DNA of 64,000 bases from Candidatus Curtissbacteria bacterium RIFOXYA1_FULL_41_14. GTDB lineage: Bacteria > Patescibacteriota > Microgenomatia > Curtissbacterales > GWA2-41-24. Position 1 is the stretch's first letter. Every line of letters begins with the position of its first letter. Positions 1,609-55,571 of this stretch are shown here, piece after piece. Position numbers and translations under genes: made by a program. The stretch spans positions 22,994-86,993 of the forward strand of contig MFCA01000025.1 of NCBI GenBank assembly GCA_001775095.1, in the 5' to 3' direction. Under the pieces are notes generated by a model that saw nothing but the letters and a program-made list of their open reading frames with translations, was not told the DNA's origin and made no database searches.

Positions 1609-3082
1609 GAGGTAAAGTATACGAGGAAGGCGAAGAATTATCAATGAAGCTTGGAAGAGTTTGGGAATCGCTAAATGGAGCTCTAATTGAACCGTATCTT
1701 CCACTACGATCTGATACTAATTGTAAAAAGTAGTGGTATTCCTGTTCAGGTGTTGTTGACTGACTGAAGATAAACCTTAATAGTTCTCTTTTACCTTCTA
1801 TCGTAAGATTACCTGCATACCACTGATGAAGACGGAAACCAATTCCATAGGCGTAGAGATAAGTTCGCTTCACAGGGTCATCTCTTCTTTCTTGAATCTG
1901 ATTTCTTATTTCGTCTTCGGGTTCTGCTGGTAAAAATCTGTGCATATATGCAATCATTTCCTCATCAGTGGACCCTGTGGTGTTGACCATAATGTGTATA
2001 TTGTTATAGATCATCTGTCTCAAACCTTCCAGCTCAAGCTCTGACTCTGTATGTTCTGAGAAATGCCGATGCAAACTTGGTACAAAAAGATGGACTGTCT
2101 GGGCAAACCCTTCAATGGGAATCTGTCCCGGATAATGAACGGATGTCAGGCCTAAAACCCGCAATAACTCACCCCTATCTATGGCATTTTTCCAGCTCTC
2201 CATTTGCGCCGCGTGTCCGGCAATCTCATGGGCTGCCATAGCTTCAACTTTACCTTCTGTCCACCTGCTTGCATGCCTGACAGGGTGAGTATTAATCTTT
2301 AATGAAAATCTTTCGTGGTCTCCGTCAATCCAATCAATCCAATAATCGTCTTCTTTGACGGCTTCAATATCGAGCTCTGGTGTTATCTTTTTACCCAGGA
2401 AGTCTGAAACTGTTCCAAGGTAAGTTGCAACATAATCTCTCATCTTATCCGGAAGTGTTTCTTCGGAAACTAGGTGTTCACGTCTATAGCGTTCAATCGA
2501 TTCACTGTCGATAGCTCCAAATCCCTTTGTGATTGAGTCAATCTGAGCCATAAGTGTGCTTTCTTCGATCATTTGCGGTCTTATACCCTGAGTTAAGCTG
2601 ATAAATTCTTCAAATGGAAATTCTTGGTTTGTTTTTCCTCGATAAAAGGTGGAGTGGGCTATAAGTTCTGCTAGTAGGAATTCCCGTTGGAGTTGGAGGG
2701 CTGCTGTTTTCCCATTTCTGGGCAGTATAATTCTTTCTGCTCTGCTACGAAGTTCGTCAATAGACCCCACAATTTCTGTCCATTCTCTTTTTGTGGGAGG
2801 GCCTTGATGCCATTTCTTCCTTCTTTCTAGGGCCCTGCGATCTCTTGGGCTTACAGGAACGAGGTCGAAATCAACTAGTTTACGGTGTGGTCCTTCCATC
2901 ACATACGCGTCGCGTAACACCTCTATGGCTTCGTCGGAGAGCTCATAAAGTTCATACTCTGGCCCTTTTTGCTCCCTCCTTCTAAAGATAGAGGGTATTA
3001 TTCCCCTGTCTTTGAATACTATTGGTCCCCTATCTCTGAATTGTTCTGGCCTACTGGCCATGTTTTGCCTCCATAAACCCAA
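1583..3082 (-). CDS. Hypothetical protein with an HEXXH motif (HEIAGH); putative zinc metallopeptidase
   Basis: A 499-aa ORF with the single motif 'AAHEIAGHAAQ'. I recognise no confident family. The C-terminus is low-complexity. Confidence 0.5.
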   Translation of the reverse strand: MGLWRQNMASRPEQFRDRGPIVFKDRGIIPSIFRRREQKGPEYELYELSDEAIEVLRDAYVMEGPHRKLVDFDLVPVSPRDRRALERRKKWHQGPPTKREWTEIVGSIDELRSRAERIILPRNGKTAALQLQREFLLAELIAHSTFYRGKTNQEFPFEEFISLTQGIRPQMIEESTLMAQIDSITKGFGAIDSESIERYRREHLVSEETLPDKMRDYVATYLGTVSDFLGKKITPELDIEAVKEDDYWIDWIDGDHERFSLKINTHPVRHASRWTEGKVEAMAAHEIAGHAAQMESWKNAIDRGELLRVLGLTSVHYPGQIPIEGFAQTVHLFVPSLHRHFSEHTESELELEGLRQMIYNNIHIMVNTTGSTDEEMIAYMHRFLPAEPEDEIRNQIQERRDDPVKRTYLYAYGIGFRLHQWYAGNLTIEGKRELLRFIFSQSTTPEQEYHYFLQLVSDRSGRYGSIRAPFSDSQTLPSFIDNSSPSSYTLPHGAAGETA

Positions 3083-3094
3083 GATTATACTACT

Positions 3095-4456
3095 TTAAAT
3101 GAGTTTCTTCAAATTCGGTCTGAAGCGCTCGAAGATTTCCAACGAGGCATACTTCTCAACAAAATGCTGGGCATCTTCATAAGTACCTACTGCTAAAATA
3201 CGCTCAAGGGTATCGGCGAGTTCATTGATTGAGACAAAAAGTTTCGTAAAATTTGGCCAGGAGAACCCTCCGGCTTCCCTAATTGCGCCGCTTTCCAAGA
3301 AATAATTCAAAGCAATTGCAAAACCTTGGGCATAGTGAATAATACTAGGTTCTTTTAGGTAAGAAGTCCACCAGGAAAATGCCCGGGCTACAAACATAAC
3401 CATAATCGCTTCCAGTTCTTTTTGACTAATTACGTCTTTTAAAAGTAATGACCCGCAGGCTTTAACCCCGTAGATTGAGGCACTAATTTCATCAAAAACA
3501 GGGAAGTATTCTTTGAGTCTTCTTTCACTGTCACGATACCTTAAAAGGGTATGGGAAATTTCATGCAGGTAAGAATTACGCAGAGAACCCATCTTGAGTA
3601 CATCAATTGGATATCCTTGCTGGAATTTTCCTTCAAAAATGGCATGGAATATAGGGTGATGCTCGGCGTTAAATTTAATGTCAAATGAGGGTTTGAAAAT
3701 TGTAATTTCTGACCCATGTTTTTCCATTAAGCCGACATCGTTTGGTAAGTTCGAGCTGGTAAACATAAAGTGGGCAATCAAACCTGAAAAGATAAGAACA
3801 TCATCAACACGAATCTGAATTTTATCCAAGAAATCGACCTTTTCCGAAGGGGCTAAAACCTTTCTTCTTCCTGACACAATGTAATTTTTGAAAACTGTGG
3901 TGTCACTGGTCCTTTGCTCGTCCATAATGCCAACCCAAGATTGATAGGCACATTTTGTGAAGAAAAGTTTGTCATCATACCGCTCAATCGGGCCGATAAC
4001 AAAGTTGATTTTGTAGGGTTTTAATGAAAGCCAATAAATGTCACTTGTTTCATAATTGCCATCTAAAAGTGAATTGGCCTGAACCTCGAGGCGTTTAGCA
4101 AAATCATGATTTTGGGTAATTTTGGCAGCCTCTTTAACTAAACGGGCTACCTTCTCCAGTTGTTTTACGAATTTAACATGATAAGGGATAGCTATAAGTT
4201 CTCCCTTTTTATTTTTTTCGACCATCGTATAGGGTGAAAGGATAGCCTTGTTGTGCCTGGCAGCTTTGACAATTTCTTCTTTGGTAACATCGTGAGGATA
4301 AAAATTGGCGCCTAAGTAGTTGGAGTTTTCTTGTTGTTCATAAATGGCGGAAATAGCCTCGGCCGCATCGATAAGCTTAGTTACCACCCGCTTTTCGGAA
4401 GCTGACAATTTTCGAATGGCTTTTGCTGAAAATTTAATTATTGGTTTTTTGGTCAT
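3095..4456 (-). CDS. Hypothetical protein with an HEXXH motif (HEISHT); putative zinc metallopeptidase
   Basis: A 453-aa ORF with the motif 'YLHEISHTLL'. It lies directly downstream of greA on the same strand. Confidence 0.5.
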   Translation of the reverse strand: MTKKPIIKFSAKAIRKLSASEKRVVTKLIDAAEAISAIYEQQENSNYLGANFYPHDVTKEEIVKAARHNKAILSPYTMVEKNKKGELIAIPYHVKFVKQLEKVARLVKEAAKITQNHDFAKRLEVQANSLLDGNYETSDIYWLSLKPYKINFVIGPIERYDDKLFFTKCAYQSWVGIMDEQRTSDTTVFKNYIVSGRRKVLAPSEKVDFLDKIQIRVDDVLIFSGLIAHFMFTSSNLPNDVGLMEKHGSEITIFKPSFDIKFNAEHHPIFHAIFEGKFQQGYPIDVLKMGSLRNSYLHEISHTLLRYRDSERRLKEYFPVFDEISASIYGVKACGSLLLKDVISQKELEAIMVMFVARAFSWWTSYLKEPSIIHYAQGFAIALNYFLESGAIREAGGFSWPNFTKLFVSINELADTLERILAVGTYEDAQHFVEKYASLEIFERFRPNLKKLI

Positions 4457-4929
4457 TTAATTTCTAAGACCCTGATCTTACTTTTAACCGGGCCAACTGC
4501 TACTTCTATTGTCTCTCCGACTCTTAAACCGAGAAGTGCTTGACCGACAGGCGATTCATTGGATATCTTTTTCGTTGCAGGGTCAGCCTCCATTGACCCA
4601 ACTATAGTAAATTCGTGAACTTCATCCCCCATCTCTACTACCACTGTAGAGCCAATAACAACAAATCCATTTTTGGGGGTTTCACTTATAATTTGAGCTT
4701 TATGCAGAACCTCTTCCAGTTCTGATATACGATGTTCTAAAAGAGACTGTTCTTCTTTGGCAGCATCATATTCCGAATTTTCGGAAAGATCTCCGAATTC
4801 TCTGGCTCTTTCGATCCTTTGAATAATCTGTGATCTCTTAACATTAACCAACAGATCATACTCCCCTTCTAACTTAGCCAGTCCTTGAGGGGTAAGGATA
4901 AATTTCTTGGAACTTTGAGTCATGTTCAT
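4453..4929 (-). CDS. greA: Transcription elongation factor GreA
   Basis: A 158-aa protein with an N-terminal coiled-coil (DLSENSEYDAAKEEQ) and a C-terminal FKBP-like domain typical of GreA/GreB. Confidence 0.9.
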   Translation of the reverse strand: MNMTQSSKKFILTPQGLAKLEGEYDLLVNVKRSQIIQRIERAREFGDLSENSEYDAAKEEQSLLEHRISELEEVLHKAQIISETPKNGFVVIGSTVVVEMGDEVHEFTIVGSMEADPATKKISNESPVGQALLGLRVGETIEVAVGPVKSKIRVLEIK

Positions 4930-5238
4930 ATATGTAGGAAGCTAATTCTATTGCAAAAATACCTCCAGGTCAAGAATTGTGAGTTTAACTATTCACCTTT
5001 CCCCAAATGGATATGTCATCGCGAGGCTACGTAGTAGCCGTGGCAATCTAAAAGATTGCTTCTCCAGCTGCGCCGGATCGCAATGACGATTTGGCTGGAC
5101 AAAACTGAATAGTTACTTGTGAGTTTGTTATTAGTTTGTTGAAAACCTCGTTATTCTTCGAACAATGTGAGAAGTCTGACAGTTCTCGCTACGGAGAGTA
5201 TCAGACGGTACTCTCCTACGCTCGAACAATATTGGTTT

Positions 5239-19001: not shown

Positions 19002-19670
19002 GTGAAGATTTATACAAAAACCGGGGATGGTGGTACCACTTCCCTGTTTGGTGCCCGAAGAGTGGATAAAAATTCGGCAAGGATTGCAGCTTATGGAGAA
19101 GTTGATGAGTTGAATTCGTTAATCGGCGTAATACTTGCAGAATTAACTCCATATCCTGACTGTCATTCTGGGGAGCGAAGCGACTCCAGAATCGATTCTG
19201 GACAAGTCCTTCGACCTCGCTCAGGACCGTTTAAGGATCGTGAGTTTAATCGAACGGCCAGAATGACAAAGCAGAAATTAATCATCAAGAAACTTTTGAG
19301 GATTCAGTCGGAACTTTTTGTTTTAGGTGCTGACTTAGCAACACCAGCTGATGTTAAAACCAAGGTGCCAAGAATCACTAAAAGATATATAACAAGACTT
19401 GAGGAAGAAATTGATTCATGGAGTGATAAATTACCCAAACTACGTAATTTTATATTGCCTGGTGGAAATAAGGTGGGATCAAAGCTTCATCTGGCAAGGT
19501 CGGTTGTCCGGCGTGCAGAAAGAGCAATTGTTGACCTTAATAGGCAAGAAAAAATTAACCAAAATGTATTAATTTACACCAACCGCCTCTCCGATTGGTT
19601 TTTTGTCGCAGCAAGATATATTAACAAACTGGAAAATATCAGGGAAAATATTTGGAAAGGCAGGGGTTAA
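19002..19670 (+). CDS. pduO: ATP:cob(I)alamin adenosyltransferase, PduO type
   Basis: GTG start. MKIYTKTGDGGTTSLFGARRVDKNSARIAAYGEVDELNS... and ...IQSELFVLGADLATP match the PduO/MMAB family. The ORF carries an extra ~36 aa between the first two helices, described in the next feature. Confidence 0.85.
   Translation: MKIYTKTGDGGTTSLFGARRVDKNSARIAAYGEVDELNSLIGVILAELTPYPDCHSGERSDSRIDSGQVLRPRSGPFKDREFNRTARMTKQKLIIKKLLRIQSELFVLGADLATPADVKTKVPRITKRYITRLEEEIDSWSDKLPKLRNFILPGGNKVGSKLHLARSVVRRAERAIVDLNRQEKINQNVLIYTNRLSDWFFVAARYINKLENIRENIWKGRG
19161..19268. mobile_element. Palindromic element copy (reverse orientation) inserted in-frame within pduO (108 nt = 36 codons)
   Basis: tgtcattctgg...ccagaatgaca with inner ccagaatcgattctgg. 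It aligns to the 43683 copy in reverse complement. It encodes PYPDCHSGERSDSRIDSGQVLRPRSGPFKDREFNRTARMTK, with no stop codon, in a loop region of PduO. Confidence 0.7.
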
Positions 19671-19680
19671 TCGATTAGAT

Positions 19681-20280
19681 ATGGCCCTCAACAGAACCGT
19701 GCAACTTAAAAAGATTCGCGATGAAATTTGGAATCTTTCTAAATCCCCTCTTTATAATTATCGCAAGAAAAACAACTACTTTCCGGTTATCGGTGAAGGG
19801 AATCATTTCTCCAAAATTATTTTTATTGGCGAAGCGCCGGGTCAGAGGGAAGCTGAAACGGGTAGGCCTTTCTGCGGAGCGGCTGGAAAAATTTTAGATG
19901 AGCTTTTGGTATCGATTGATTTAAAACGGAAAGATGTCTATATCACTAATGTAGTTAAGGATAGACCTCCTAATAATCGTGATCCGGAGCCTGAGGAAAT
20001 TAAACTTTATTCCCCTTTTTTAGATCGGCAAATTTTAATTATTAAACCCAAAATTATTGCGACCCTGGGGCGTTTCTCAACCAAATATATTTTGGAAAAG
20101 TTTAATTTGTCCGAGAAAAACGAGTCGATCACAAACCTTCATGGCAAGGTTATCGAAGCAAAAGTACCGTTTGGCAAGACAAAAATCATCCCTCTTTATC
20201 ATCCAGCAGTCGTACTTTACAGCGCAGGCAGCAGAAAAGTACTTGAGGAAGATTTTAGAATTTTGAAGGACTTAGTATAA
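19681..20280 (+). CDS. Uracil-DNA glycosylase, family 4
   Basis: The GEAPGQREAETGRPFCGAAGKILDELL motif is typical of family-4 UDG. The track ORF begins at 19603 inside pduO. The probable start is MALNRT at 19681. Confidence 0.8.
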   Translation: MALNRTVQLKKIRDEIWNLSKSPLYNYRKKNNYFPVIGEGNHFSKIIFIGEAPGQREAETGRPFCGAAGKILDELLVSIDLKRKDVYITNVVKDRPPNNRDPEPEEIKLYSPFLDRQILIIKPKIIATLGRFSTKYILEKFNLSEKNESITNLHGKVIEAKVPFGKTKIIPLYHPAVVLYSAGSRKVLEEDFRILKDLV

Positions 20281-20287
20281 TTAAGTT

Positions 20288-20734
20288 GTGAAGTTGATAG
20301 TTATTGCTTTACTTTCTCTGGGATTTGCAAGCGTCTTGGAGTACTTAGGGGCTTTCGTGATAAGCCCACCTTTATGTGGTATGTTCAACCTAGATGATGG
20401 CCTTGAATGTCTTCCACTGTATTTCTGGATTGCACTGCTACTTCTCCTGCTTGGATTATCTTTAGGTTTTGTGATTGGCAACTATCTTGTAAGCAAAGAG
20501 AGATTAACTTTTAACTTGAAAAATTTTTACCTATCATTAATTACTGGCAGTCTAACGATACTTATCGACGGTTTGATAATTGCTGGAGTGATTAATATTG
20601 CTAATAGCCGCTTTTTCGGAATGCGTGGGGTGCCTAGTCACCTAGACGGTCCCGGTTTTGTTTTACTTGGTGGACTTAGTTTTCTTTTCTGGTTATGGAT
20701 TACGACAAAACTAAAGCAAAAATTTTTGGCCTAA
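20288..20734 (+). CDS. Hypothetical membrane protein (4 TM)
   Basis: A 148-aa hydrophobic ORF with a GTG start. Confidence 0.45.
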   Translation: MKLIVIALLSLGFASVLEYLGAFVISPPLCGMFNLDDGLECLPLYFWIALLLLLLGLSLGFVIGNYLVSKERLTFNLKNFYLSLITGSLTILIDGLIIAGVINIANSRFFGMRGVPSHLDGPGFVLLGGLSFLFWLWITTKLKQKFLA

Positions 20735-20743
20735 ATTGATTTT

Positions 20744-20770
20744 TAGCTGCACTTGCTCCAGCCGCAGGAG
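20744..20770. repeat. 27-bp direct repeat (left copy) duplicating the last 8 codons plus stop of nrdJ
   Basis: tagctgcacttgctccagccgcaggag matches tagctgcatttgctccagccgcaggag at 21256-21282 at 26 of 27 positions. Its reverse complement also encodes SCGWSKCS*. It directly abuts the DUF2283 stop codon. Confidence 0.8.
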
Positions 20771-21001
20771 TTAAACTGAGTGAGAAATCCTCCCCCGATA
20801 TGTTGGGAGTGTAAAAGTCACCGAATCTAAATTTTTCTTTGAGAGCTTTTTGGAAGCGTCGAGAACTTCGATTCCAATTAGTTCTCTGCCTGCATAATCC
20901 ACAATAAGATCAGCACTCACCTCTTCTGTTCGAGTACTTTTCTTTTTATCCGAAAGATAAATATACATGGCATCTGCCACCGGATCATATGTGATTTTCA
21001 T
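20771..21001 (-). CDS. DUF2283-family protein (putative antitoxin paired with DUF4258)
   Basis: MKITYDPVADAMYIYLSDKK... is the characteristic DUF2283 N-terminus. It is 76 aa long. Confidence 0.7.
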   Translation of the reverse strand: MKITYDPVADAMYIYLSDKKKSTRTEEVSADLIVDYAGRELIGIEVLDASKKLSKKNLDSVTFTLPTYRGRISHSV

Positions 21002-21013
21002 AGTCAGTCTATT

Positions 21014-21250
21014 TTACTTTTCTGACCTTTTTTTCGCAAGCCAGTACAGAGTTACCACTACTAACTGTTTTTCTTCTTCGGATATTATTAATTTCAGGTA
21101 ATTTTTGCCGAAATTTTTTAAATAGATTTTTTTGTCTTCTCTTGCTGGCAATATTTTATCCGGGTTTTTAGCACATTCGTCCGCTAACTCTTTTTTAAGC
21201 TTGCGTTGTGCAAGCATTTCCAGAGCATGTTTTGTGTAAATAATAGTCAC
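21014..21250 (-). CDS. DUF4258-family protein (putative toxin)
   Basis: (V)TIIYTKHALEMLAQRKL... matches the DUF4258 pattern (I.FT.HA...M..R.I). The track ORF start (TTG at 21319) reads through the nrdJ 3' end. GTG at 21250 or ATG at 21217 is more likely. Confidence 0.6.
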   Translation of the reverse strand: MTIIYTKHALEMLAQRKLKKELADECAKNPDKILPAREDKKIYLKNFGKNYLKLIISEEEKQLVVVTLYWLAKKRSEK

Positions 21251-21254
21251 GTAC

Positions 21255-24080
21255 CTAGCTGCATTTGCTCCAGCCGCAGGAGGGATTGATGCATTGACGG
21301 CAGCCTTCGGCAAAGACAACCGGGCTTGCGCAATCTGGGCAAACTACAAATTTATTTTCAATTATTTTTTCCTGATGAATGCTACTTACCGAACCGGTGT
21401 CGATTTGGTACTTACCCCCGACTGGGATATTCATCTGGGTACTTTTGGTGTTTCCCTTTGTTAAACCATTACCACTTCCTGTTTGACCGTTGGTATAAGC
21501 TGATTTGGCCGGGTAGTTTGTATGGCCGTTGGTTAAGGGAGTTTTTACAATGGATTCGATTGGTTCGTCTTGCCCAACTACTGGAAGGGTAAGTTGTTTG
21601 GCTTTGGCAATCTCCAATAAGGATTTACCGACGGCATCAAAGGCGGAAAGGACGCTGTCCGGTCCGATACCATAGGGCGTACCACAGGATATCCCGACTA
21701 GGTCTGTAGCAACCTCCTCCAAGCTCGCACCATATTTCAGGGCGCGGGATGCCAATCTGCCTGTAACTTCAGCGGCACCAGCCACATAACCGCCTGTTTT
21801 ACCGATAGTTACAAAAACCTCAACCGGCATACCTTCAGCATCCCGAAATACGGATGTATAAACATATCCAACATCAGCTTTCTTGCGAACTCTCATTCCC
21901 ACAGCTTCAGTTGGGGTCGACTTTTTTCTAGGAATTTGTGGTTGTGGTTCTTGGTAAATACGTTTACCGGTAAGCTGGTCATAATAAGAGTTATCTTTTT
22001 TAACCTCCAGGACTTGCTTAATTCTTGAACCGTCGCGATAAATTGTAGTCATGCGGCAACCAAGTTCGTATGTCAGCCAATAAGCTTGCCGGACATCTTC
22101 GACAGTCGCTTCATTTGGAAAATTGATTGTTTTGGAAATTCCGTTGTCAGTGTATTTCTGGAAAGCTGCTTCCATACGGATATGATCAGCAGGAGAAATA
22201 TCTTGGGCAACTACAAAAACCCTTGTCAGATCCTGAGGTATCTCACCTAAATTCTGAATTGAACCACGATTCTCTTCAATCTTGGAAAGTAATTGGTCGG
22301 AATCAATCCCCTTATTTTTCAAGGCCCCTAAAAAGTAGGAGTTAGTATTAAAAAGTCTTTTACCCTCGATGGTATTTTTGGCAAATGTCAGCGCAAAATA
22401 CGGTTCAATACCGCTGGAACAATCAGCAAGCAGGGAAATTGTGCCGGTTGGAGCGATAGTTGTTCTGGCAGCATTTCTTGGATGAATTTTACCTGGTTGG
22501 TTGTAGATAGAATCTTTGAAGGATGGAAATACCCCGCGAACCTTTGCTAGGTTCACACTGGCATTGTCTGCTTCATCTTGAATGAACTTCATGACTTTTT
22601 CTGCCAAGGAGAAAGCTTCAAAAGTGTTATAGCCAATACCAAGTTTGGCCAGCATATCTGCCCAGCCCATAACTCCAAGGCCGATTCTTCTGATTTTTGA
22701 GGTCATCTGGTCAATTTCCGCAACCGGATATTCGTTCATATCAAGAACGTTATCCAAAAAGTGAACTGCCTTGTGGATTGTTTGTTTTAACTCTTGCCAG
22801 TCGATTCTTTCTTCGACCGGTTCATCATATTGAGCGGAAGCCCTTCGACTTTGCTCAGGATCTTCGACCCTTCGACTTTGCTCAGGATCTTCGACCCTTC
22901 GACTTTGCTCAGTGTCTTCGACTTCGTCTTTAACGAACTTGGAGAGATTAACAGAGCCTAAAGTACAGGCATCATATGGGAGAAGCGGCTGTTCTGCACA
23001 GGGATTGGTAGCTTCGATTTGGCCAAGTTTTGGAGTTGGATTAGCCCGGGAATCGTTGATTCTATCAATTAAAACCACTCCCGGATCTCCGTACTGCCAG
23101 GCAAGTCTGGTTATTAAATCAAAGACTCTTTTGGCATTGAGTTTGTCAGTAACTTCACCGGTCCGAGGATTAACAAGGTTGTATCCTTCCCCTTTATGTT
23201 TAGCACGACAAGCTTCATATAACTTTCTAACTGCTTCTTCAACGCGAACATTTTTAAGATCAAGGTCGCGAATTGTGTATGCTTCTCTTATTTCTTCTAT
23301 AATCTCGTTAATTTCCAACTCGCCATCCGCACCTCGACTACGCTCGGTGTCTTCGACAAACTTGGCATCTTTTTTGACTTTTTCCATAAATTCCTCAGTT
23401 ATACTTATGGAGATATTAAAGTTAGTTAGCGAAAACTCATCGACTTTGTGAACTGCAAAACGCAAAATATCAGGGTGTGTATAGTGAAGGATTCCCATAT
23501 TAGCACCGCGGCGAACTCCACCCTGTCTTATTTGCGAAGTTACGTCGTTATAGGCTTGCAAAAAAGCAACTGGACCGGTTGATTTGCCCTTTGAGGTACC
23601 AATAATATCGTCTTTTGGACGGAGCTTGGAAAAAGAAAAGCCTGTCCCACCGCCCATTTTATGAATCATTGCCATATCCCGCATCGTTCTGAGAATTGAT
23701 TCCATATCATCCTCAATAGGTAAGACAAAACAAGCTGAAAGCGATTGGCCGGTTTTACCGGAGTTGACTAAAGTCGGAGTATTGGGAATAAATCTCTGGG
23801 AAGCCATAAGTTTGTAAAATTCTTTGGCTGTCTTTTTGTGGATATTGCCTTCGTAAATTCTGTCGGCAGCGGCAATATAGTAGGCAACACGCCAGAAAAG
23901 TTTTTTTGGAGTTTCTACCGGTTCCCCTTTCTCGTTACGGAAAGAGTAACGGGTTTGGGCAATATAGGCAGCATTTTCGGATAGAGTCGGTTCAAATAAA
24001 TCTTTCGGGACAGCCGGAATCTTTCTGCCTATTGCGCGAACATCTTCTCTTGTGAATTTCTTCTTTAACACTTTTTTCAT
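21255..24080 (-). CDS. nrdJ: Ribonucleoside-diphosphate/triphosphate reductase, class II (adenosylcobalamin-dependent)
   Basis: A 941-aa protein with the class II RNR fold signature and a C-terminal Cys-rich zinc ribbon (CPDCASP...CRQCINPSCGWSKCS). It overlaps nrdR by 4 nt. It contains in-frame repeat insertions, described in the next feature. Confidence 0.9.
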   Translation of the reverse strand: MKKVLKKKFTREDVRAIGRKIPAVPKDLFEPTLSENAAYIAQTRYSFRNEKGEPVETPKKLFWRVAYYIAAADRIYEGNIHKKTAKEFYKLMASQRFIPNTPTLVNSGKTGQSLSACFVLPIEDDMESILRTMRDMAMIHKMGGGTGFSFSKLRPKDDIIGTSKGKSTGPVAFLQAYNDVTSQIRQGGVRRGANMGILHYTHPDILRFAVHKVDEFSLTNFNISISITEEFMEKVKKDAKFVEDTERSRGADGELEINEIIEEIREAYTIRDLDLKNVRVEEAVRKLYEACRAKHKGEGYNLVNPRTGEVTDKLNAKRVFDLITRLAWQYGDPGVVLIDRINDSRANPTPKLGQIEATNPCAEQPLLPYDACTLGSVNLSKFVKDEVEDTEQSRRVEDPEQSRRVEDPEQSRRASAQYDEPVEERIDWQELKQTIHKAVHFLDNVLDMNEYPVAEIDQMTSKIRRIGLGVMGWADMLAKLGIGYNTFEAFSLAEKVMKFIQDEADNASVNLAKVRGVFPSFKDSIYNQPGKIHPRNAARTTIAPTGTISLLADCSSGIEPYFALTFAKNTIEGKRLFNTNSYFLGALKNKGIDSDQLLSKIEENRGSIQNLGEIPQDLTRVFVVAQDISPADHIRMEAAFQKYTDNGISKTINFPNEATVEDVRQAYWLTYELGCRMTTIYRDGSRIKQVLEVKKDNSYYDQLTGKRIYQEPQPQIPRKKSTPTEAVGMRVRKKADVGYVYTSVFRDAEGMPVEVFVTIGKTGGYVAGAAEVTGRLASRALKYGASLEEVATDLVGISCGTPYGIGPDSVLSAFDAVGKSLLEIAKAKQLTLPVVGQDEPIESIVKTPLTNGHTNYPAKSAYTNGQTGSGNGLTKGNTKSTQMNIPVGGKYQIDTGSVSSIHQEKIIENKFVVCPDCASPVVFAEGCRQCINPSCGWSKCS
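21256..21282. repeat. 27-bp direct repeat (right copy) equal to the authentic 3' end of the nrdJ CDS
   Basis: Pairs with 20744-20770 at 26 of 27 positions and brackets the DUF4258/DUF2283 cassette. Confidence 0.8.
22841..22921. repeat. Three tandem in-frame copies of a 27-nt unit (ccttcgactttgctcaggatcttcgac) within nrdJ
   Basis: Encodes ...VEDTEQSRRVEDPEQSRRVEDPEQSRR... A further single copy sits at about 23332-23357 (VEDTERSRG). The same unit is in gltX and in the palindromic elements. Confidence 0.85.
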
Positions 24081-27239: not shown

Positions 27240-28130
27240 TTAAGATGTGTCTTTTAAATCTCTAAGATTCTCAAGTGCATTAAAAGCAAGCGCCGCATGT
27301 TGGCCTGGATGAATTGATAGCTCATTGTGTCCGCCTATTACAGAATAGTACCCTTTTATTTCTATAGGTAATACACCATTAGACTCCTTAGACTTGAGCA
27401 TATTTGCAGTTTGGCGGCTAACCGGAAATAACGGATCATCAACGCCTGCTATTACACTAAATTTGATGCCTTGCTCCCAAAGCTTCTTCATTATTTCCCC
27501 AAGATCAAAACTGGTTAGCGCACCCACTTCTTTAGGCACTCTTAAGGGATGCTCCACGAAGTATCGTGCGGTTCTTCCACCTGCCCTAATTGAACTTGTA
27601 GAATCCGTCAGTGCTTTAGGTCGAGTCTTCATCTCTTGAGATAAGAGCTCTTTAAATCTTCCGGCCAAAGCTTTTATTGAATCTTGTCCAATGAGACCGG
27701 CCGGCTTATCAAGGACTATATTGCGAAATTTATCCGGCTTAAGCATAGCCGCAATCAAACTATTTATTGCCCCTTCCGAATGCGCAATAACGTCTGCTTT
27801 TTCTATTCCTTTTTTATCAAGAACATCAAGAAGTAATAAGGCTTTTTGAAGCTCTATTTTTGGATATTCTCCCCCACTTGTAACTTTGCCTCCATGGCCT
27901 GAATATTCAACTGTCAAAACTCTTCTTCCTTCTCTAAAACCAACAGCTAAAGTTTCCTCGTAGGTTTTAGGATTTTCGGCCCAGCCGGGTGCGATAAGCA
28001 CCGGTACATCATCTTTTAACACCTCCGGCGCAACATCAACAACTGTTATTTTACCTTCCGGGAATTTTAAAGTGTCACGATTTCTGAATTGTTGTTCAAA
28101 CGAGGGGGCTGGTGCTTCTCCGGTTTCCAT
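27240..28130 (-). CDS. Alpha/beta-fold hydrolase
   Basis: GxSxG nucleophile elbow (AHSEGA), 296 aa. Confidence 0.55.
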   Translation of the reverse strand: METGEAPAPSFEQQFRNRDTLKFPEGKITVVDVAPEVLKDDVPVLIAPGWAENPKTYEETLAVGFREGRRVLTVEYSGHGGKVTSGGEYPKIELQKALLLLDVLDKKGIEKADVIAHSEGAINSLIAAMLKPDKFRNIVLDKPAGLIGQDSIKALAGRFKELLSQEMKTRPKALTDSTSSIRAGGRTARYFVEHPLRVPKEVGALTSFDLGEIMKKLWEQGIKFSVIAGVDDPLFPVSRQTANMLKSKESNGVLPIEIKGYYSVIGGHNELSIHPGQHAALAFNALENLRDLKDTS

Positions 28131-28233: not shown

Positions 28234-29208
28234 CTAGAATCTTCCGATTTTGTTAGTATATCGAAGGCCGATTCTTCCCATTCCTAAGAAGTATTCATTT
28301 TCGGCAGATGTATTACCATTTACAACCTTTTCATAACTGGCTAAAAGAACATGCATTGCATGGGCTAATTTTACATAATCAGGCAATTTCTTGATTTCAT
28401 CTGCAGTTAGTGTAATATACTTCTGATACTCGCTTAAGGCTAAATCGTAGTTTTTGGGAAAGCTCCCAAAACCCTTTGGATTAAAGAACAAATCACATAA
28501 AATAACCGCAAGTTCTTGAATTCTTGGGTAATAGTTTGCTACCGCGAAATCTAAGATATAAATATCCCCATTAACACTCTTCATTGTATTTGTCTTGGTA
28601 ATATCCCCATGTACAAAACAGTGAGGTAAATTTTCGACGGATAGAGAATTAAATACATCCACAAGCGGTTCTATCAGGTTTTTATCCTCTTTATTAAGAT
28701 ACTGGCCTTTCTTTTTATACTCTTTGGGGAAATTTGTTATCGCCCATTGGTCATATACCAGTGATGGACGAATATCAATCTTATTGACTAGTGCTGCCTG
28801 TTTGATAATAAAACGCATTTCTTTGACAGTTGGCGTAGTTTGAAGCTGGTAGAAATTTTGTCCATCGATAAACTCCATCACACAAAGTCTATCTGTTTGG
28901 CTATTATTTGATATCTCGTAAAGATGGTCTTGGTTAGATTTGTAAAGTCTGGGGTATGATATACCGGCTTTTAAAACACTATCCATAATTTCAACATATC
29001 GGCTGCATTCGTTCTTATTCCGAAAAGAGGCAAAGATTTTGACAAAATACCTACCCCTTTTTGTTTTTAAAAATAGGTTAAAATCTTCATAGCCAATCGG
29101 GACTATTTTGCAAGAACCATATTCGCCAATATGGAAGTCTTGGCAAACTTGCTTAAGAAATGGCTTTAAGTCACCTCGATAATGAATTCTTTTTTGAAAG
29201 TTATACAT
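28234..29208 (-). CDS. Aminoglycoside/choline-kinase-like phosphotransferase (APH family fold)
   Basis: HGDITKTN catalytic-loop motif and ILDFAVANY (DFG-equivalent) typical of APH/ChoK-like kinases. Confidence 0.6.
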   Translation of the reverse strand: MYNFQKRIHYRGDLKPFLKQVCQDFHIGEYGSCKIVPIGYEDFNLFLKTKRGRYFVKIFASFRNKNECSRYVEIMDSVLKAGISYPRLYKSNQDHLYEISNNSQTDRLCVMEFIDGQNFYQLQTTPTVKEMRFIIKQAALVNKIDIRPSLVYDQWAITNFPKEYKKKGQYLNKEDKNLIEPLVDVFNSLSVENLPHCFVHGDITKTNTMKSVNGDIYILDFAVANYYPRIQELAVILCDLFFNPKGFGSFPKNYDLALSEYQKYITLTADEIKKLPDYVKLAHAMHVLLASYEKVVNGNTSAENEYFLGMGRIGLRYTNKIGRF

Positions 29209-46863: not shown

Positions 46864-48181
46864 AATTTTTAAGTCTGGTAATCGTCTCCTCTTGACCAAG
46901 TTGTTCCATAGATTCGTAAAGAGGAGGGGTAATTATACTACCTGAGACAATATTTCTGACAGCAGAAATTAACTCTATCCTGTCGATTTTTTTAAGGACA
47001 GCTGTTTCCTCGATTAATTTCCTGATGACAGAATTATTCCAAACCTTACTTTTTTCAAAAACTGAGATTACATCAGCAATCAATGAAACAGACAGTGATA
47101 TTTTGGGAATATTTGAAATTTTCGGGCGGTTGAAAAAGAAGTCCGCCATTTTTGGGAATTCCAACAATGTTTTCATCCGTTCCCTGACAAGTGGTATTAA
47201 AGATCTGATTTTTTCAAGATCATATTGGGGAAAAAGGGTTTTAATCTGTTTGGCAAGTCTGTCGTCTTTGATCTTTTTCATCCACTCCCGATTAAACCAA
47301 TTTAATTTTTCGCCGTTGAAGATCGGGCTGTTTTTGTTAAGGCGATCAAGCGAAAATTCGCGAGTTAAATCATTTAGAGAAAATATTTCTCTATCGTCTT
47401 TGGGCGCCCAACCAAGAAGGCTCAAAAAGTTAACTAGAGCTTCGGGCAGATAACCTTCATCTATATATTCGATAACTGATTTTGCACCTTCGCGCTTTGA
47501 AAGCTTTTTACGATCAGGTCCCAGGATTGGCGGCAGATGAATAAAAGCAGGATATAGCCACGAAAAGGCCTCGTACAAAAGAAGATGTTTTGGAGTTGAT
47601 GATATCCATTCGTCCCCGCGGATGACGTGGGAGATTTGCATATCGTGATCATCAACAACAGAGGCAAAGTGATACGTCGGGAAACCGTCGGATTTTACTA
47701 TGATAAAGTCTTCGAGTACATCGGATAAAAACTTAATTTCGCCATGAACCAAATCTTGCCATTTTAGGGTTTTTCCTTTTGGAATTTTGAAGCGCCAAGA
47801 TCCTTGGTCTTCATAAACCAGCTTCTGGTCTTTTAGAATTTTCAGGTGTTTCTGGTAAAGATCCAGTCTTCTGGACTGCTCGTAATACTCATCCCATTTC
47901 AAACCAAGAACCGAGAGGCTTTCTTGAATTATTTCTCGAGAGCCTGGAACTAGTCTTTTACGATCGGTGTCCTCAAGCCTGAGTATGAAGGTGCCATCCT
48001 GATTTTTTGCATACAAAAAATCAAAAAGGGCTGTTCTTATATTGCCGATATGAGGAACTCCAGTTGGCGACGGGGCATATCGAACACGGACCCTTCGACT
48101 ACGCTCAGGGTCTTCGACCTTTCGACTACGCTCAGGGTCTTCGACCTTTCGACTACGCTGCGGGTCTTCGGTCTTTTTCAT
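46847..48181 (-). CDS. gltX: Glutamyl-tRNA synthetase with an N-terminal repeat-encoded extension
   Basis: RVRYAPSPTGVPHIGNIRTA (HIGH) and KLSKREG (KMSKS). The first 30 residues, MKKTEDPQRSRKVEDPERSRKVEDPERSRR, are encoded by the 27-nt tandem repeat. There is no alternative start downstream of the repeat. Confidence 0.85.
   Translation of the reverse strand: MKKTEDPQRSRKVEDPERSRKVEDPERSRRVRVRYAPSPTGVPHIGNIRTALFDFLYAKNQDGTFILRLEDTDRKRLVPGSREIIQESLSVLGLKWDEYYEQSRRLDLYQKHLKILKDQKLVYEDQGSWRFKIPKGKTLKWQDLVHGEIKFLSDVLEDFIIVKSDGFPTYHFASVVDDHDMQISHVIRGDEWISSTPKHLLLYEAFSWLYPAFIHLPPILGPDRKKLSKREGAKSVIEYIDEGYLPEALVNFLSLLGWAPKDDREIFSLNDLTREFSLDRLNKNSPIFNGEKLNWFNREWMKKIKDDRLAKQIKTLFPQYDLEKIRSLIPLVRERMKTLLEFPKMADFFFNRPKISNIPKISLSVSLIADVISVFEKSKVWNNSVIRKLIEETAVLKKIDRIELISAVRNIVSGSIITPPLYESMEQLGQEETITRLKNYVKKK
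48092..48172. repeat. Three tandem in-frame copies of the 27-nt unit (ccttcgactacgctcagggtcttcgac) at the 5' end of gltX
   Basis: It is the same unit as in nrdJ with 2-3 substitutions, and it encodes VEDPERSRK repeats. Confidence 0.85.
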
Positions 48182-53657: not shown

Positions 53658-55013
53658 ATGGATAAAGAACTTGTAAACATTCTGCAGGCCATAGTAAAAG
53701 CCGGTTTTGAGGTAGCTATTGTTGGAGGTGCGGTCAGGGATTTTTTGGCAAAAAAAGATATTAGCGATTGGGATTTTACAACCAATGCCAGACCCGAGGA
53801 AATTTTAAAATTAATTAAGGGGTCATTTTACAATAATCGATTTGGTACGGTGGGGGTAGTACTTCAAAGTCAAAAGTTAACTATTCAAATTACGACTTAC
53901 CGAACGGAAGAAAAATATACAGACAAAAGACATCCCGACGTAATTGTCTGGGGAAAGACACTAGAGGAGGACTTGTCACGGCGTGATTTTACGATTAATG
54001 CAATGGCCCTGCGAATTGAAAATGGAAAGTTGAAAGTTGAAAAAGACAATTTGGTTGACCCGTTTGATGGCCAAAAAGATCTAAGAAACAAACTAGTTCG
54101 CGCGGTTGGCGATCCGGATAAACGATTTAGGGAGGACGCATTAAGACTTTTAAGAGCGACTCGTTTTGCTACAACATTAGGTTTTAAAATTGAAGATAAA
54201 ACAGCTGCAGCAATCAAGAAAAATGCTAAAGCTCTTTTGTTAATCTCCGGCGAGAGAATTCGGGATGAACTTTTTAAAATACTAGGATCTGAGAATGCTG
54301 CTGACGGCATTCTCTTGGCTCGTGATCTTGGACTTCTGCAAATAATTTTGCCGGAACTTAATGAGTGTTTTACTGTTGAGCAAAAAAGTCCCCAGCGCCA
54401 TCATATTTATGACGTCGGAACTCACTGTGTCATGAGTCTGAGAAATTGTCCTTCCAAAGATACAATCACTCGTCTGGCGACCCTACTTCATGATACTGGT
54501 AAAGCCAAAGTAGCGGCTGTTACCGAAGAAGGCGTAAGAACTTTTCATAATCATGAGCTTGTCTCCTCAAGACAAGCTTTACAAATTGCCAAAAGACTCC
54601 ATCTTACTAATACCCAGAGAGAAAAATTATTCAAATTGGTCCGTTGGCATCAATTTAGCGTTAATGAAAATCAGACAGACAAGGCTTTGCGACGATTTAT
54701 CAGAAATATCGGGATCGAAAACATCGAGGATATGATGGATTTGAGAATCGGCGACAGGCTTGGCGGCGGATTGCAGCAGCCGGAATCCTGGAGACTTAAA
54801 CTTTTCAGAAAACGGCTAAAGGATGTTATGAAAAAACCGTTTACTGTTGCTGATCTTAAAGTCGACGGTCACGACGTAATGAAGATTCTAAATATCAAAC
54901 CTGGACCAAAAGTCGGCGAAGTGTTAAAAATGCTTTTCGAACAAGTCGCCGACGATCCTAAGAAAAATAACCGCGATTATTTGCAAAAAAGATTAAAAGA
55001 ATATAAAAATTGA
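53658..55013 (+). CDS. cca: CCA-adding tRNA nucleotidyltransferase / poly(A) polymerase family with HD domain
   Basis: N-terminal IVGGAVRDFLAK...DWDF polymerase-beta-like head and a central HD domain (LLHDTGK). Confidence 0.85.
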   Translation: MDKELVNILQAIVKAGFEVAIVGGAVRDFLAKKDISDWDFTTNARPEEILKLIKGSFYNNRFGTVGVVLQSQKLTIQITTYRTEEKYTDKRHPDVIVWGKTLEEDLSRRDFTINAMALRIENGKLKVEKDNLVDPFDGQKDLRNKLVRAVGDPDKRFREDALRLLRATRFATTLGFKIEDKTAAAIKKNAKALLLISGERIRDELFKILGSENAADGILLARDLGLLQIILPELNECFTVEQKSPQRHHIYDVGTHCVMSLRNCPSKDTITRLATLLHDTGKAKVAAVTEEGVRTFHNHELVSSRQALQIAKRLHLTNTQREKLFKLVRWHQFSVNENQTDKALRRFIRNIGIENIEDMMDLRIGDRLGGGLQQPESWRLKLFRKRLKDVMKKPFTVADLKVDGHDVMKILNIKPGPKVGEVLKMLFEQVADDPKKNNRDYLQKRLKEYKN

Positions 55014-55571
55014 AGAATTATTTTTAATCTTCTTTTTAATTAACTCAATAATTTCCGGAAATTCTTTTTTAGGGTTAGGGTAGCCAAAATGTTGCTCATT
55101 TTCAAACTCGAAATATTCCGTATTTAATTTGTTATTAATGAATCGTGAATGCTCAATTGGAATAAAGGGGTCATCTTTAGAGGCAAACTGAGCAATCCAT
55201 TTGGTATTCTTTTTAATTGTCGACCACTTCCAAGGTTCATCAAAATAGCCGCTTAATTTATCTTCCCTATAACCAAGGTCTGTGTAATGCCCAGCAACTA
55301 AAATTGCACCAAAAACTTTTATCTTTTCAAGCACACGCATAGTCGCGGCTGCGCCGGATGAGTGTCCAACAAGAATTGAGTTTTTGTCTGCTTTTAATGT
55401 ATCAATAATAAAAGGCTCCCAATATTTCCGACGTGCAAGATACCAGTCCGGCATATTTTTGGCAATAACTTCTAAGCCCAAATGTGTCAGTTTTTCAATT
55501 AAGTATGGGAACCAGTAATATTTATTAATGTCATCATGATAACCATTCCCTGGAAGCAATACTACTTTCAT
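54993..55571 (-). CDS. Alpha/beta hydrolase, RBBP9/YdeN-like serine hydrolase
   Basis: GHSSGA nucleophile elbow. It is 192 aa long. Confidence 0.6.
   Translation of the reverse strand: MKVVLLPGNGYHDDINKYYWFPYLIEKLTHLGLEVIAKNMPDWYLARRKYWEPFIIDTLKADKNSILVGHSSGAAATMRVLEKIKVFGAILVAGHYTDLGYREDKLSGYFDEPWKWSTIKKNTKWIAQFASKDDPFIPIEHSRFINNKLNTEYFEFENEQHFGYPNPKKEFPEIIELIKKKIKNNSSIFIFF

Follow-up and report, generated by a model that had tools for sequence, protein, structure and literature searches.

The class II (adenosylcobalamin-dependent) ribonucleotide reductase (RNR) gene nrdJ of Candidatus Curtissbacteria bacterium RIFOXYA1_FULL_41_14 (Microgenomates) is followed by a putative toxin-antitoxin (TA) pair that lies between two copies of the last codons of nrdJ itself. 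The locus is part of a stretch of 64,000 nucleotides (nt) of contig MFCA01000025.1 (assembly GCA_001775095.1, positions 22,994 to 86,993), here called the window. Coordinates refer to the window unless a related locus, designated by an L number, is named. In the direction of nrdJ transcription, the locus comprises:

21255..24080, minus strand: nrdJ, class II RNR of 941 amino acids (aa) (open reading frame, ORF; Pfam Ribonuc_red_lgN/lgC/TSCPD, lgC E 3.6e-124)
21256..21282, minus strand: proximal repeat copy, the functional last 8 nrdJ codons plus 2 bases of the TAG stop (sequence match)
21014..21250, minus strand: DUF4258-family putative toxin, 78 aa (PF14076, E 5.6e-7, above the gathering score)
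20771..21001, minus strand: DUF2283-family putative antitoxin, 76 aa (PF10049, E 2e-15)
20744..20770, minus strand: distal repeat copy, apparently a displaced, non-coding former nrdJ terminus of the AAG ... TAA type (sequence match)
20288..20734, plus strand: predicted membrane protein of 148 aa without a Pfam family (ORF; Pfam)
19603..20280, plus strand: uracil-DNA glycosylase family gene (UDG; Pfam UDG, E 1.6e-32)

The distal copy reads TAGCTGCACTTGCTCCAGCCGCAGGAG (20744-20770) and the proximal copy TAGCTGCATTTGCTCCAGCCGCAGGAG (21256-21282), in direct orientation and with 26 of 27 positions identical. On the minus strand, the proximal copy consists of the last base of a Pro codon, the codons for S C G W S K C S, and the first two bases of the TAG stop. 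The distal copy, which directly abuts the DUF2283 stop codon (20771-20773), differs by an aaa to aag change and has its would-be stop, TAA, at 20743-20745. The 485 nt separating the copies hold the DUF2283 and DUF4258 genes and nothing else; there is no mobility gene, and specifically no tyrosine or serine recombinase gene, between the repeats. A preliminary description of this DNA had reported the two direct 27-mers, the right one as the genuine nrdJ end SCGWSKCS, the left one as encoding the same residues with synonymous changes (aaa to aag, TAG to TAA), and a 485-nt insert corresponding exactly to the two-gene module. All of this was recovered by sequence search, ORF analysis and Pfam, with the refinement that the repeat takes in two bases of the TAG stop.

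A scan of the whole window for direct repeats dispersed over less than 4 kb returned this pair as the only near-perfect one, and no further copy of the 27-mer was found in the window with up to 3 mismatches allowed (shuffled sequences with a match, 0/100). Both copies are spanned in 15 independent assemblies of one groundwater population with identical layout, and the layout is therefore no assembly artefact. The interior or edge of the cassette is also the break point of several assemblies of the same population (end of L017, locus 9334; end of L018, 9053; start of L009), and one contig stops 3 nt short of the end of the distal repeat; these breaks may reflect strain heterogeneity masked by consensus contigs.

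The two inserted genes are 12 nt apart with the toxin gene first, and the DUF4258 product gives an additional weak match to the PBECR3 nuclease family. By family, order and spacing, the pair fits a type II TA module and is regarded as a putative one. The best start codon of the DUF4258 gene is GTG at 21250, 4 nt past the nrdJ stop, which is preferred because the orthologues in L020 and L063 start at the corresponding position (with ATG in L063). No promoter-like site was detected in the window from nrdJ to the toxin start, which suggests that the TA pair is probably co-transcribed, by read-through from nrdR-nrdJ.

Comparison with related genomes identifies the TA pair as an addition to an older gene order. 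In the closest other species recovered (L044), whose nrdJ is 88% identical to that of the window in aa and 86% in nt, the UDG stop lies 5 nt past the nrdJ stop with the two genes convergent, and neither a TA pair nor a second nrdJ-end copy nor the 148-aa gene is present. The arrangement in a more distant species (L048/L062) is identically empty. These sites argue for an ancestral order of nrdJ, convergent UDG and Cob_adeno_trans, into which, judged from the gene orders compared, the window lineage gained the TA pair by a real insertion at the nrdJ end. The preliminary description had proposed insertion into the nrdJ 3' end with reconstitution of the gene end, to be checked against an empty site in relatives; the single-copy sites in L044 and L048/L062, with nrdJ and UDG converging 5 nt apart, are such sites. 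The locus thus shows hallmarks of an integrative element: each junction carries a direct repeat, relatives have the site empty, and the end of the target gene is restored. For the window population itself, the empty junction (ATCAATCCCTCCTGCGGCTGGAGCAARTGCAGCTAAAAATCAATTT, the left nrdJ flank, core and downstream flank) gave 0 matches in metagenome contigs, and there is hence no sign of ongoing excision at the contig level; a circle junction would read ...CACTCAGTTTAA + CTCCTGCGGCTGGAGCAARTGCAGCTA + GGTACGTGACT... (DUF2283 end, core and DUF4258 start).

Orthologous cassettes occur in L063, immediately behind nrdJ, and in L020, where the cassette is the second of an array, with a mean column identity of 82% in the three-way alignment. 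The TA proteins of the window and L063 are 81–89% identical in aa, those of L063 are 81–93% identical to their counterparts in the window and L020, and the DUF2283 orthologues in L063 and L020 show 89–91% aa identity. The UDG of L063 is only 68–71% identical to the other UDGs, which are themselves 82–85% identical to the window UDG, and the same-codon fraction at conserved residues between window and L020 is 0.74 and 0.58 for the TA genes vs 0.47 for nrdJ. By these measures the housekeeping genes have diverged further than the cassette, which appears to have been shared horizontally. No phage or plasmid carrier of the cassette was found in IMG/VR. Homologous pairs in other contexts (L064, L067/L068, L072) have no nrdJ-like copy beside them, and a site travelling with the TA pair was rejected as a candidate.

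Compared with its orthologues, the window cassette lacks about 34 nt of leader from the nrdJ stop to the toxin start and about 20 nt from the antitoxin stop to CCTGCGG. The repeat copies at the orthologous cassettes are longer, at least 34 nt in L063 (31/34 identical, bounded by the contig end, with similarity visible further left) and 33 nt in L020, where the copies overall measure 33–50 nt. The 27-mer of the window is accordingly the deletion-trimmed remnant of a longer copy, its 27-nt extent being secondary. The 27-nt repeat of the preliminary description thus holds as the present size and not as the original extent; likewise, the small size of the minimal mobile cassette proposed there results in part from secondary deletions.

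The end of nrdJ is a hotspot that has received other cargo in related species. In L045/L050/L051, nrdJ is followed by a ribbon-helix-helix (RHH)-like gene and a RelE/YafQ-like toxin gene, and then by a decayed copy of the nrdJ end (18/21 positions identical); in L056 by a Phd/YefM antitoxin and a ParE toxin, and then by a decayed copy (20/23); and in L070 by an 84-aa gene with a decayed copy behind it (24/28). L019 carries two reverse-strand genes after nrdJ, and an old nrdJ-end copy (40/54) behind a PsbP_2 gene. In the remaining species, unrelated genes or nothing are found downstream of nrdJ. As to the repeat near other TA modules, a search for which was also suggested in the preliminary description, nrdJ-end copies follow other TA pairs at nrdJ; homologous pairs in other contexts have none.

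The most elaborate arrangement is the array of L020/L052, which reads nrdJ, Peptidase_S51, copy (34/34), DUF4258-DUF2283, copy (30/33), PsbP_2, copy (44/50) and UDG, i.e., three cassettes and four nrdJ-end copies in a row. Over 34 nt, 3 of which lie past the stop, copies 1 and 2 do not differ at all, and the copies decay with distance from nrdJ. The most distal one retains 50 nt of nrdJ-like sequence and still runs directly into the spacer and UDG end found at the empty site of L048. This contiguity with the ancestral spacer and UDG argues that the original nrdJ end of L020 has been pushed away, by 2.1 kb, and that the end now in use arrived later.

Terminus duplication is not confined to nrdJ. 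In L063, a second, divergent pair of DUF4258-like (98 aa) and DUF2283-like (78 aa) genes follows UDG (1183-1840), and behind it lie about 43 nt of pseudo-UDG 3' end, with a 24-nt core at 92% and one frameshift. In this species, therefore, a TA cassette and a terminus duplication are found at both of the convergent genes, nrdJ and UDG. In L064 (Curtissbacteria GW2011_GWA1_40), the fusA-tuf interval (2480-5090) holds a YafQ toxin with its antitoxin, a DUF4258/DUF2283 pair and a Peptidase_S51 gene, and a 60-nt pseudo-copy at 2872-2931 reproduces the Peptidase_S51 leader and the first 30 nt of the gene. Peptidase_S51 and the DUF4258/DUF2283 family are neighbours both in L064 and in the nrdJ array of L020. 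Across Curtissbacteria, the interval from nrdJ to Cob_adeno_trans is hypervariable (L069, L070, L071, L056), with PsbP_2, Peptidase_S51, APH, Ser_hydrolase, DUF2079, pseudouridine synthase, acetyltransferase or glycosyltransferase genes as cargo depending on the species; ORFs of some of the same Pfam families occur elsewhere in the window (APH, 28234-29208; Abhydrolase, 27240-28130; Ser_hydrolase, 54993-55571).

Four unrelated cassettes open with CTCTTG, 1–4 nt past the nrdJ stop (cassette starts at L020 7231-7245 and 8031-8045, L045 7854-7865, L056 3761-3772 and L058 252-265). The hexamer overlaps promoter-like boxes, TTGACA-17-TACACT in L056 and TTGTAA-17-TATAAT in L045, and in L045 the bases past it resemble the ancestral nrdJ-UDG spacer and UDG end.

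The duplicated sequence encodes the conserved Zn-finger tail in which the nrdJ protein ends (...CINPSCGWSKCS), and a CGWSKCS tail is common to 19 phage RNR genes (termini in L025-L043), none of which has a second copy there. The last 25 nt of nrdJ are identical in four Curtissbacteria species whose whole nrdJ genes are only 72–76% identical in nt. For the last 8 codons in the six-species clade, the same-codon fraction is 0.845 vs 0.527 gene-wide, a value reached by 1 of 752 windows along the gene. The right edge of the repeat falls at the stop codon (-4 to +3) and the left edge anywhere from -25 to -53 in nine comparisons. A fixed right edge and a variable left edge are what would be expected if the two copies were two nrdJ ends and the variable edge an illegitimate joint.

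The differences between the copies bear on which of them is resident. Beside the orthologous cassette, the window and L063 share a proximal copy of the AAA ... AGC TAG type, and AAG...TAA is found in the distal copies and in the nrdJ of other species, so that in the window the derived states (AAA, TAG) lie in the functional copy and the dead copy keeps the states of nrdJ in other species. The young copy pairs differ at synonymous or conservative positions. This points to an imported functional nrdJ end. Moreover, the last 60 nt of nrdJ are 73% identical between the window and L044 (86% gene-wide) vs 88% between the window and L048 (73% gene-wide), which suggests a short mosaic tract at the nrdJ end.

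Taken at about an even chance of being right, the reading that we favour sees in the two 27-mers no functional recombination site but a scar left by horizontal acquisition, in which an nrdJ end and the cassette behind it were imported together and the resident end was displaced. The starting point would be nrdJ and UDG converging with almost no spacer, and the donor segment, from another Curtissbacterium, would consist of an nrdJ end and the DUF4258/DUF2283 pair. On the left side, the donor would pair with conserved nrdJ sequence, leaving a donor tract of apparently at most about 60 nt, either by a short-homology Campbell-type crossover of a circle or by one-sided homologous exchange; on the right side, the joint would fall within the resident gene, a few dozen bases before its stop codon. 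The product would be nrdJ with an imported end, followed by the cassette, the resident nrdJ end as a dead copy, and the old downstream DNA. With genes packed this tightly, only insertions that duplicate a gene terminus, and thereby leave both genes intact, would be expected to survive, which would place the right edge at the stop and leave the left edge variable; long duplications would be lost through recombination, and the two effects together would set the observed size range of the repeats. Later deletions in the window would have removed the leader with its promoter region and the left part of the dead copy, and owing to the loss of the leader the toxin gene would now start 4 nt past the nrdJ stop.

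Several points weigh against this reading. The same 25-nt stretch has been reused by at least five different cassettes, and reuse together with synonymous-site conservation is what a real recombination site would predict, although repeated terminus replacement would also predict both. Homologies of 25–50 nt are short for a RecA-driven crossover, the mosaic signal covers 60 nt, and the check for recombinases was confined to 64 kb of the genome. A donor with a known joint sequence was not identified, and the joints in the window are secondary deletions, so that any microhomology at the original joint is unreadable. CTCTTG at four cassette starts might belong to a common recombination site and be neither a -35 box nor ancestral spacer. 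Reuse, the decay gradient, codon conservation and CTCTTG can each be explained without a dedicated enzyme as well, by repeated terminus replacement, nrdJ-anchored insertion, a -35 box or ancestral spacer sequence, but they still count as possible evidence for a site.

If, instead, a site-specific recombinase encoded elsewhere used the nrdJ terminus as its attachment site and serially inserted circular, recombinase-less cassettes, the 27-mers would be attL and attR and the locus a capture platform akin to an integron or to the staphylococcal cassette chromosome (SCC) and pseudo-SCC elements. We consider this rival, although a serious one, rather unlikely. It would account for the five or more cassette types at one site, for tandem arrays whose best-preserved copy lies nearest nrdJ, for L020 copies 1 and 2 being identical beyond the stop, for the exceptional conservation of synonymous sites in the last 8 codons and for CTCTTG just past the stop in four unrelated cassettes; however, no integrase or recombinase was found in any of the related arrays or among the 30 window ORFs of 110–450 aa, within a scan of 64 kb in which ORFs above 450 aa and below 110 aa were covered in part. 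The repeats begin at variable points on the left but always end at the stop codon on the right, the duplicated UDG 3' end and Peptidase_S51 5' end have unrelated sequences, homologous TA pairs occur elsewhere without the site, and the empty junction is absent from the metagenome contigs of the same population. The terminus in L020 forms an imperfect 14-7-14 palindrome (11/14), which would favour a site but is discounted as evidence: the match is poor in the window (6/14) and follows largely from the Cys, Ser and stop codons. Nor does the repeat form a significant hairpin (folding z 0.2–0.6 for both window copies on both strands; best value -1.56, in L020), and an attC- or terminator-like structure was rejected on this basis; there was no match to an Rfam family. 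By eye, the window boundaries read GCAGCTAGG and GCAGCTAAA, with no GTTRRRY (R''/R' core site), no formal motif test having been applied, and no ATAA/TTAT-type arms of a 28-bp dif-like site (11-6-11), as would be expected of Xer/dif-dependent modules (IMEX, pdif modules), are seen in what is the coding end of nrdJ. No IntI gene lies beside the entry point of the array, where nrdR and an iron-sulfur (FeS)-assembly gene are the upstream neighbours of nrdJ in all loci. The att core and site-specific integrase of the preliminary description thus remain undemonstrated and are somewhat disfavoured, and the search for a recombinase that it had suggested gave no match among the 30 window ORFs scanned. 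A more specific proposal is that a trans-acting recombinase, unlinked to the cassettes, recognizes the DNA of the nrdJ Zn-finger terminus and serially inserts mostly TA cassettes, each with a copy of the terminus, in Curtissbacteria and perhaps in other bacteria of the Candidate Phyla Radiation (CPR). Such a platform would explain the arrays, the reuse of the 25 nt, the synonymous-site conservation and the shared CTCTTG; we nevertheless hold it to be quite improbable.

Two further explanations involve neither an imported nrdJ end nor a recombinase. In a true target-site duplication, foreign DNA would be ligated into a staggered break, overhangs of about 25–55 nt would be filled in, and both copies would be resident. 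The identity of L020 copies 1 and 2 over 34 nt and the duplication of three different gene termini agree with this, and duplications of 30–400 bp spanning start or stop codons are known for restriction-modification (RM) units (PMC2853133). Against it, the right edge lies at the stop in all eight comparisons and never extends into the adjacent UDG end; the functional window copy is derived, with its derived states shared with the proximal copy of L063, and it is the non-coding copy that resembles the relatives; and the differences within young pairs are synonymous or conservative. That both copies derive from the target is accordingly doubtful, and we judge the explanation decidedly unlikely. 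The other explanation involves no mobility at all: the TA pair would have been passed on vertically beside nrdJ since long ago, with the repeat being a product of local duplication or slippage, or a sequence kept for termination or translational coupling. The arrangement is indeed fixed in all population assemblies that span the site, and the toxin starts only 4 nt past the nrdJ stop. However, the site is empty in the closest relative and taken by other cassette types in other species, the cassette is more similar to those of more distant species than nrdJ or UDG is, the repeat has neither structure nor an Rfam match, and the distal copies of L020 decay with distance. Contradicted by both the empty sites and the arrays, this explanation is largely refuted and in our estimate has very little chance of being correct.

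The 148-aa gene between UDG and the old nrdJ end lies outside the TA cassette; L020 lacks it, as do the relatives with an empty site, and it is a lineage-specific extra gained separately from the TA pair. No repeat bracketing it could be shown, and a candidate pseudo-copy of the UDG 3' end beside it was rejected as not significant, its score being equalled by 221 of 2000 shuffles and 159 of 3458 genomic 49-mers. Another repeat of 27 nt lies within nrdJ itself, where three in-frame tandem copies (22839-22926) encode VEDPEQSRR x3, and the identical unit occurs three times in tandem at the 5' end of a gene resembling that of glutamyl-tRNA synthetase (GluRS-like; MKKTEDPQRSRKVEDPERSRKVEDPERSRRV..., 48089-48176). 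A strain variant of nrdJ (932 aa, L006) has one unit fewer, and the motif is present in the nrdJ of L020 too. One 9-aa repeat is thereby shared by two unrelated essential genes.

Among known systems, insertion with long target duplication comes closest to the arrangement at nrdJ, and Nobusato et al. in 2000 (Gene 259:99) reportedly described it for RM gene units. RM units inserted with long target duplications, which often span a start or stop codon, have no mobility genes and occur mostly in naturally competent species (PMC2853133); the mechanism of such insertion is unknown (PMC2853133; PMC3874152). Furuta, Abe and Kobayashi (2010) defined these units as smaller than 20 kb and without a mobility gene, flanked by a direct repeat of more than 30 bp that is single at a related empty site (PMC2853133). 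The 485-nt insert is a unit of less than 20 kb with addiction genes and no mobility gene, and single-copy sites are present in L044 and L048. The window repeat, at 27 nt, is shorter than 30 bp because of later deletion; in L063 and L020, the repeats at the orthologous cassettes measure at least 34 nt and 33 nt, respectively, and further copies are up to 50–54 nt long. The two phenomena have in common an addiction-type unit, target repeats of tens of bases over a stop codon, an intact target gene and empty sites in relatives, but differ in that here the cargo is a type II TA pair, the host belongs to the CPR, the site is serially reused to give arrays, and one copy was apparently imported. A literature search found nothing specific on TA cassettes with gene-end duplications in CPR bacteria, and none for classical TA pairs.

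In staphylococci, SCC elements insert at the rlmH (orfX) 3' end; they are kilobases long and are moved by the CcrAB or CcrC serine recombinases, with a defined core of 15 bp. SCC and pseudo-SCC elements resemble the nrdJ cassettes in their insertion at the 3' end of a housekeeping gene whose end is restored, in the direct repeats at the junctions, in tandem accretion and in that some lack a recombinase; in contrast, no Ccr-type recombinase or fixed core boundary was found here, within the 64 kb of genome covered, and the variable left edges argue against a fixed core. Integron arrays and clusters of attC sites lacking integron-integrases (CALINs) likewise consist of ordered cassettes of one or two genes, often TA genes, each followed by a repeat and with the newest beside a fixed entry point. 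They differ from the nrdJ locus, which has no IntI, no attC-type palindrome or hairpin and no GTTRRRY boundaries, whose repeats copy a coding gene end, and where at least two of the cassettes of related species have promoter-like sequences themselves. Transformable bacteria provide two other comparisons, the minimal mobile elements of Neisseria and homology-facilitated illegitimate recombination. As at nrdJ, the same conserved flanks enclose different cassettes in different lineages; as proposed for nrdJ, exchange is anchored in the flanks, and one-sided homology combined with an illegitimate joint can insert foreign DNA. A duplication of the flanking terminus is, however, not characteristic there, and competence or transformation is undemonstrated in Curtissbacteria.

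The spread of TA modules without transposases or integrases and the uptake of genes by the ultra-compact genomes of CPR bacteria are both poorly understood. The nrdJ locus provides a natural series at one gene terminus (empty, with one cassette, with several different cassettes and with an array of three) in a group of uncultivated bacteria that are believed to rely on taking up DNA. If insertion is anchored by homology, duplicating the terminus would be what it costs to insert DNA between genes only a few bases apart, and insertion with long target duplication would extend from RM units to TA modules. If a dedicated enzyme is responsible, the locus would represent a cassette-capture system of a kind not described before. 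In both cases, the end of nrdJ is a practical marker for recently acquired cargo in these genomes.

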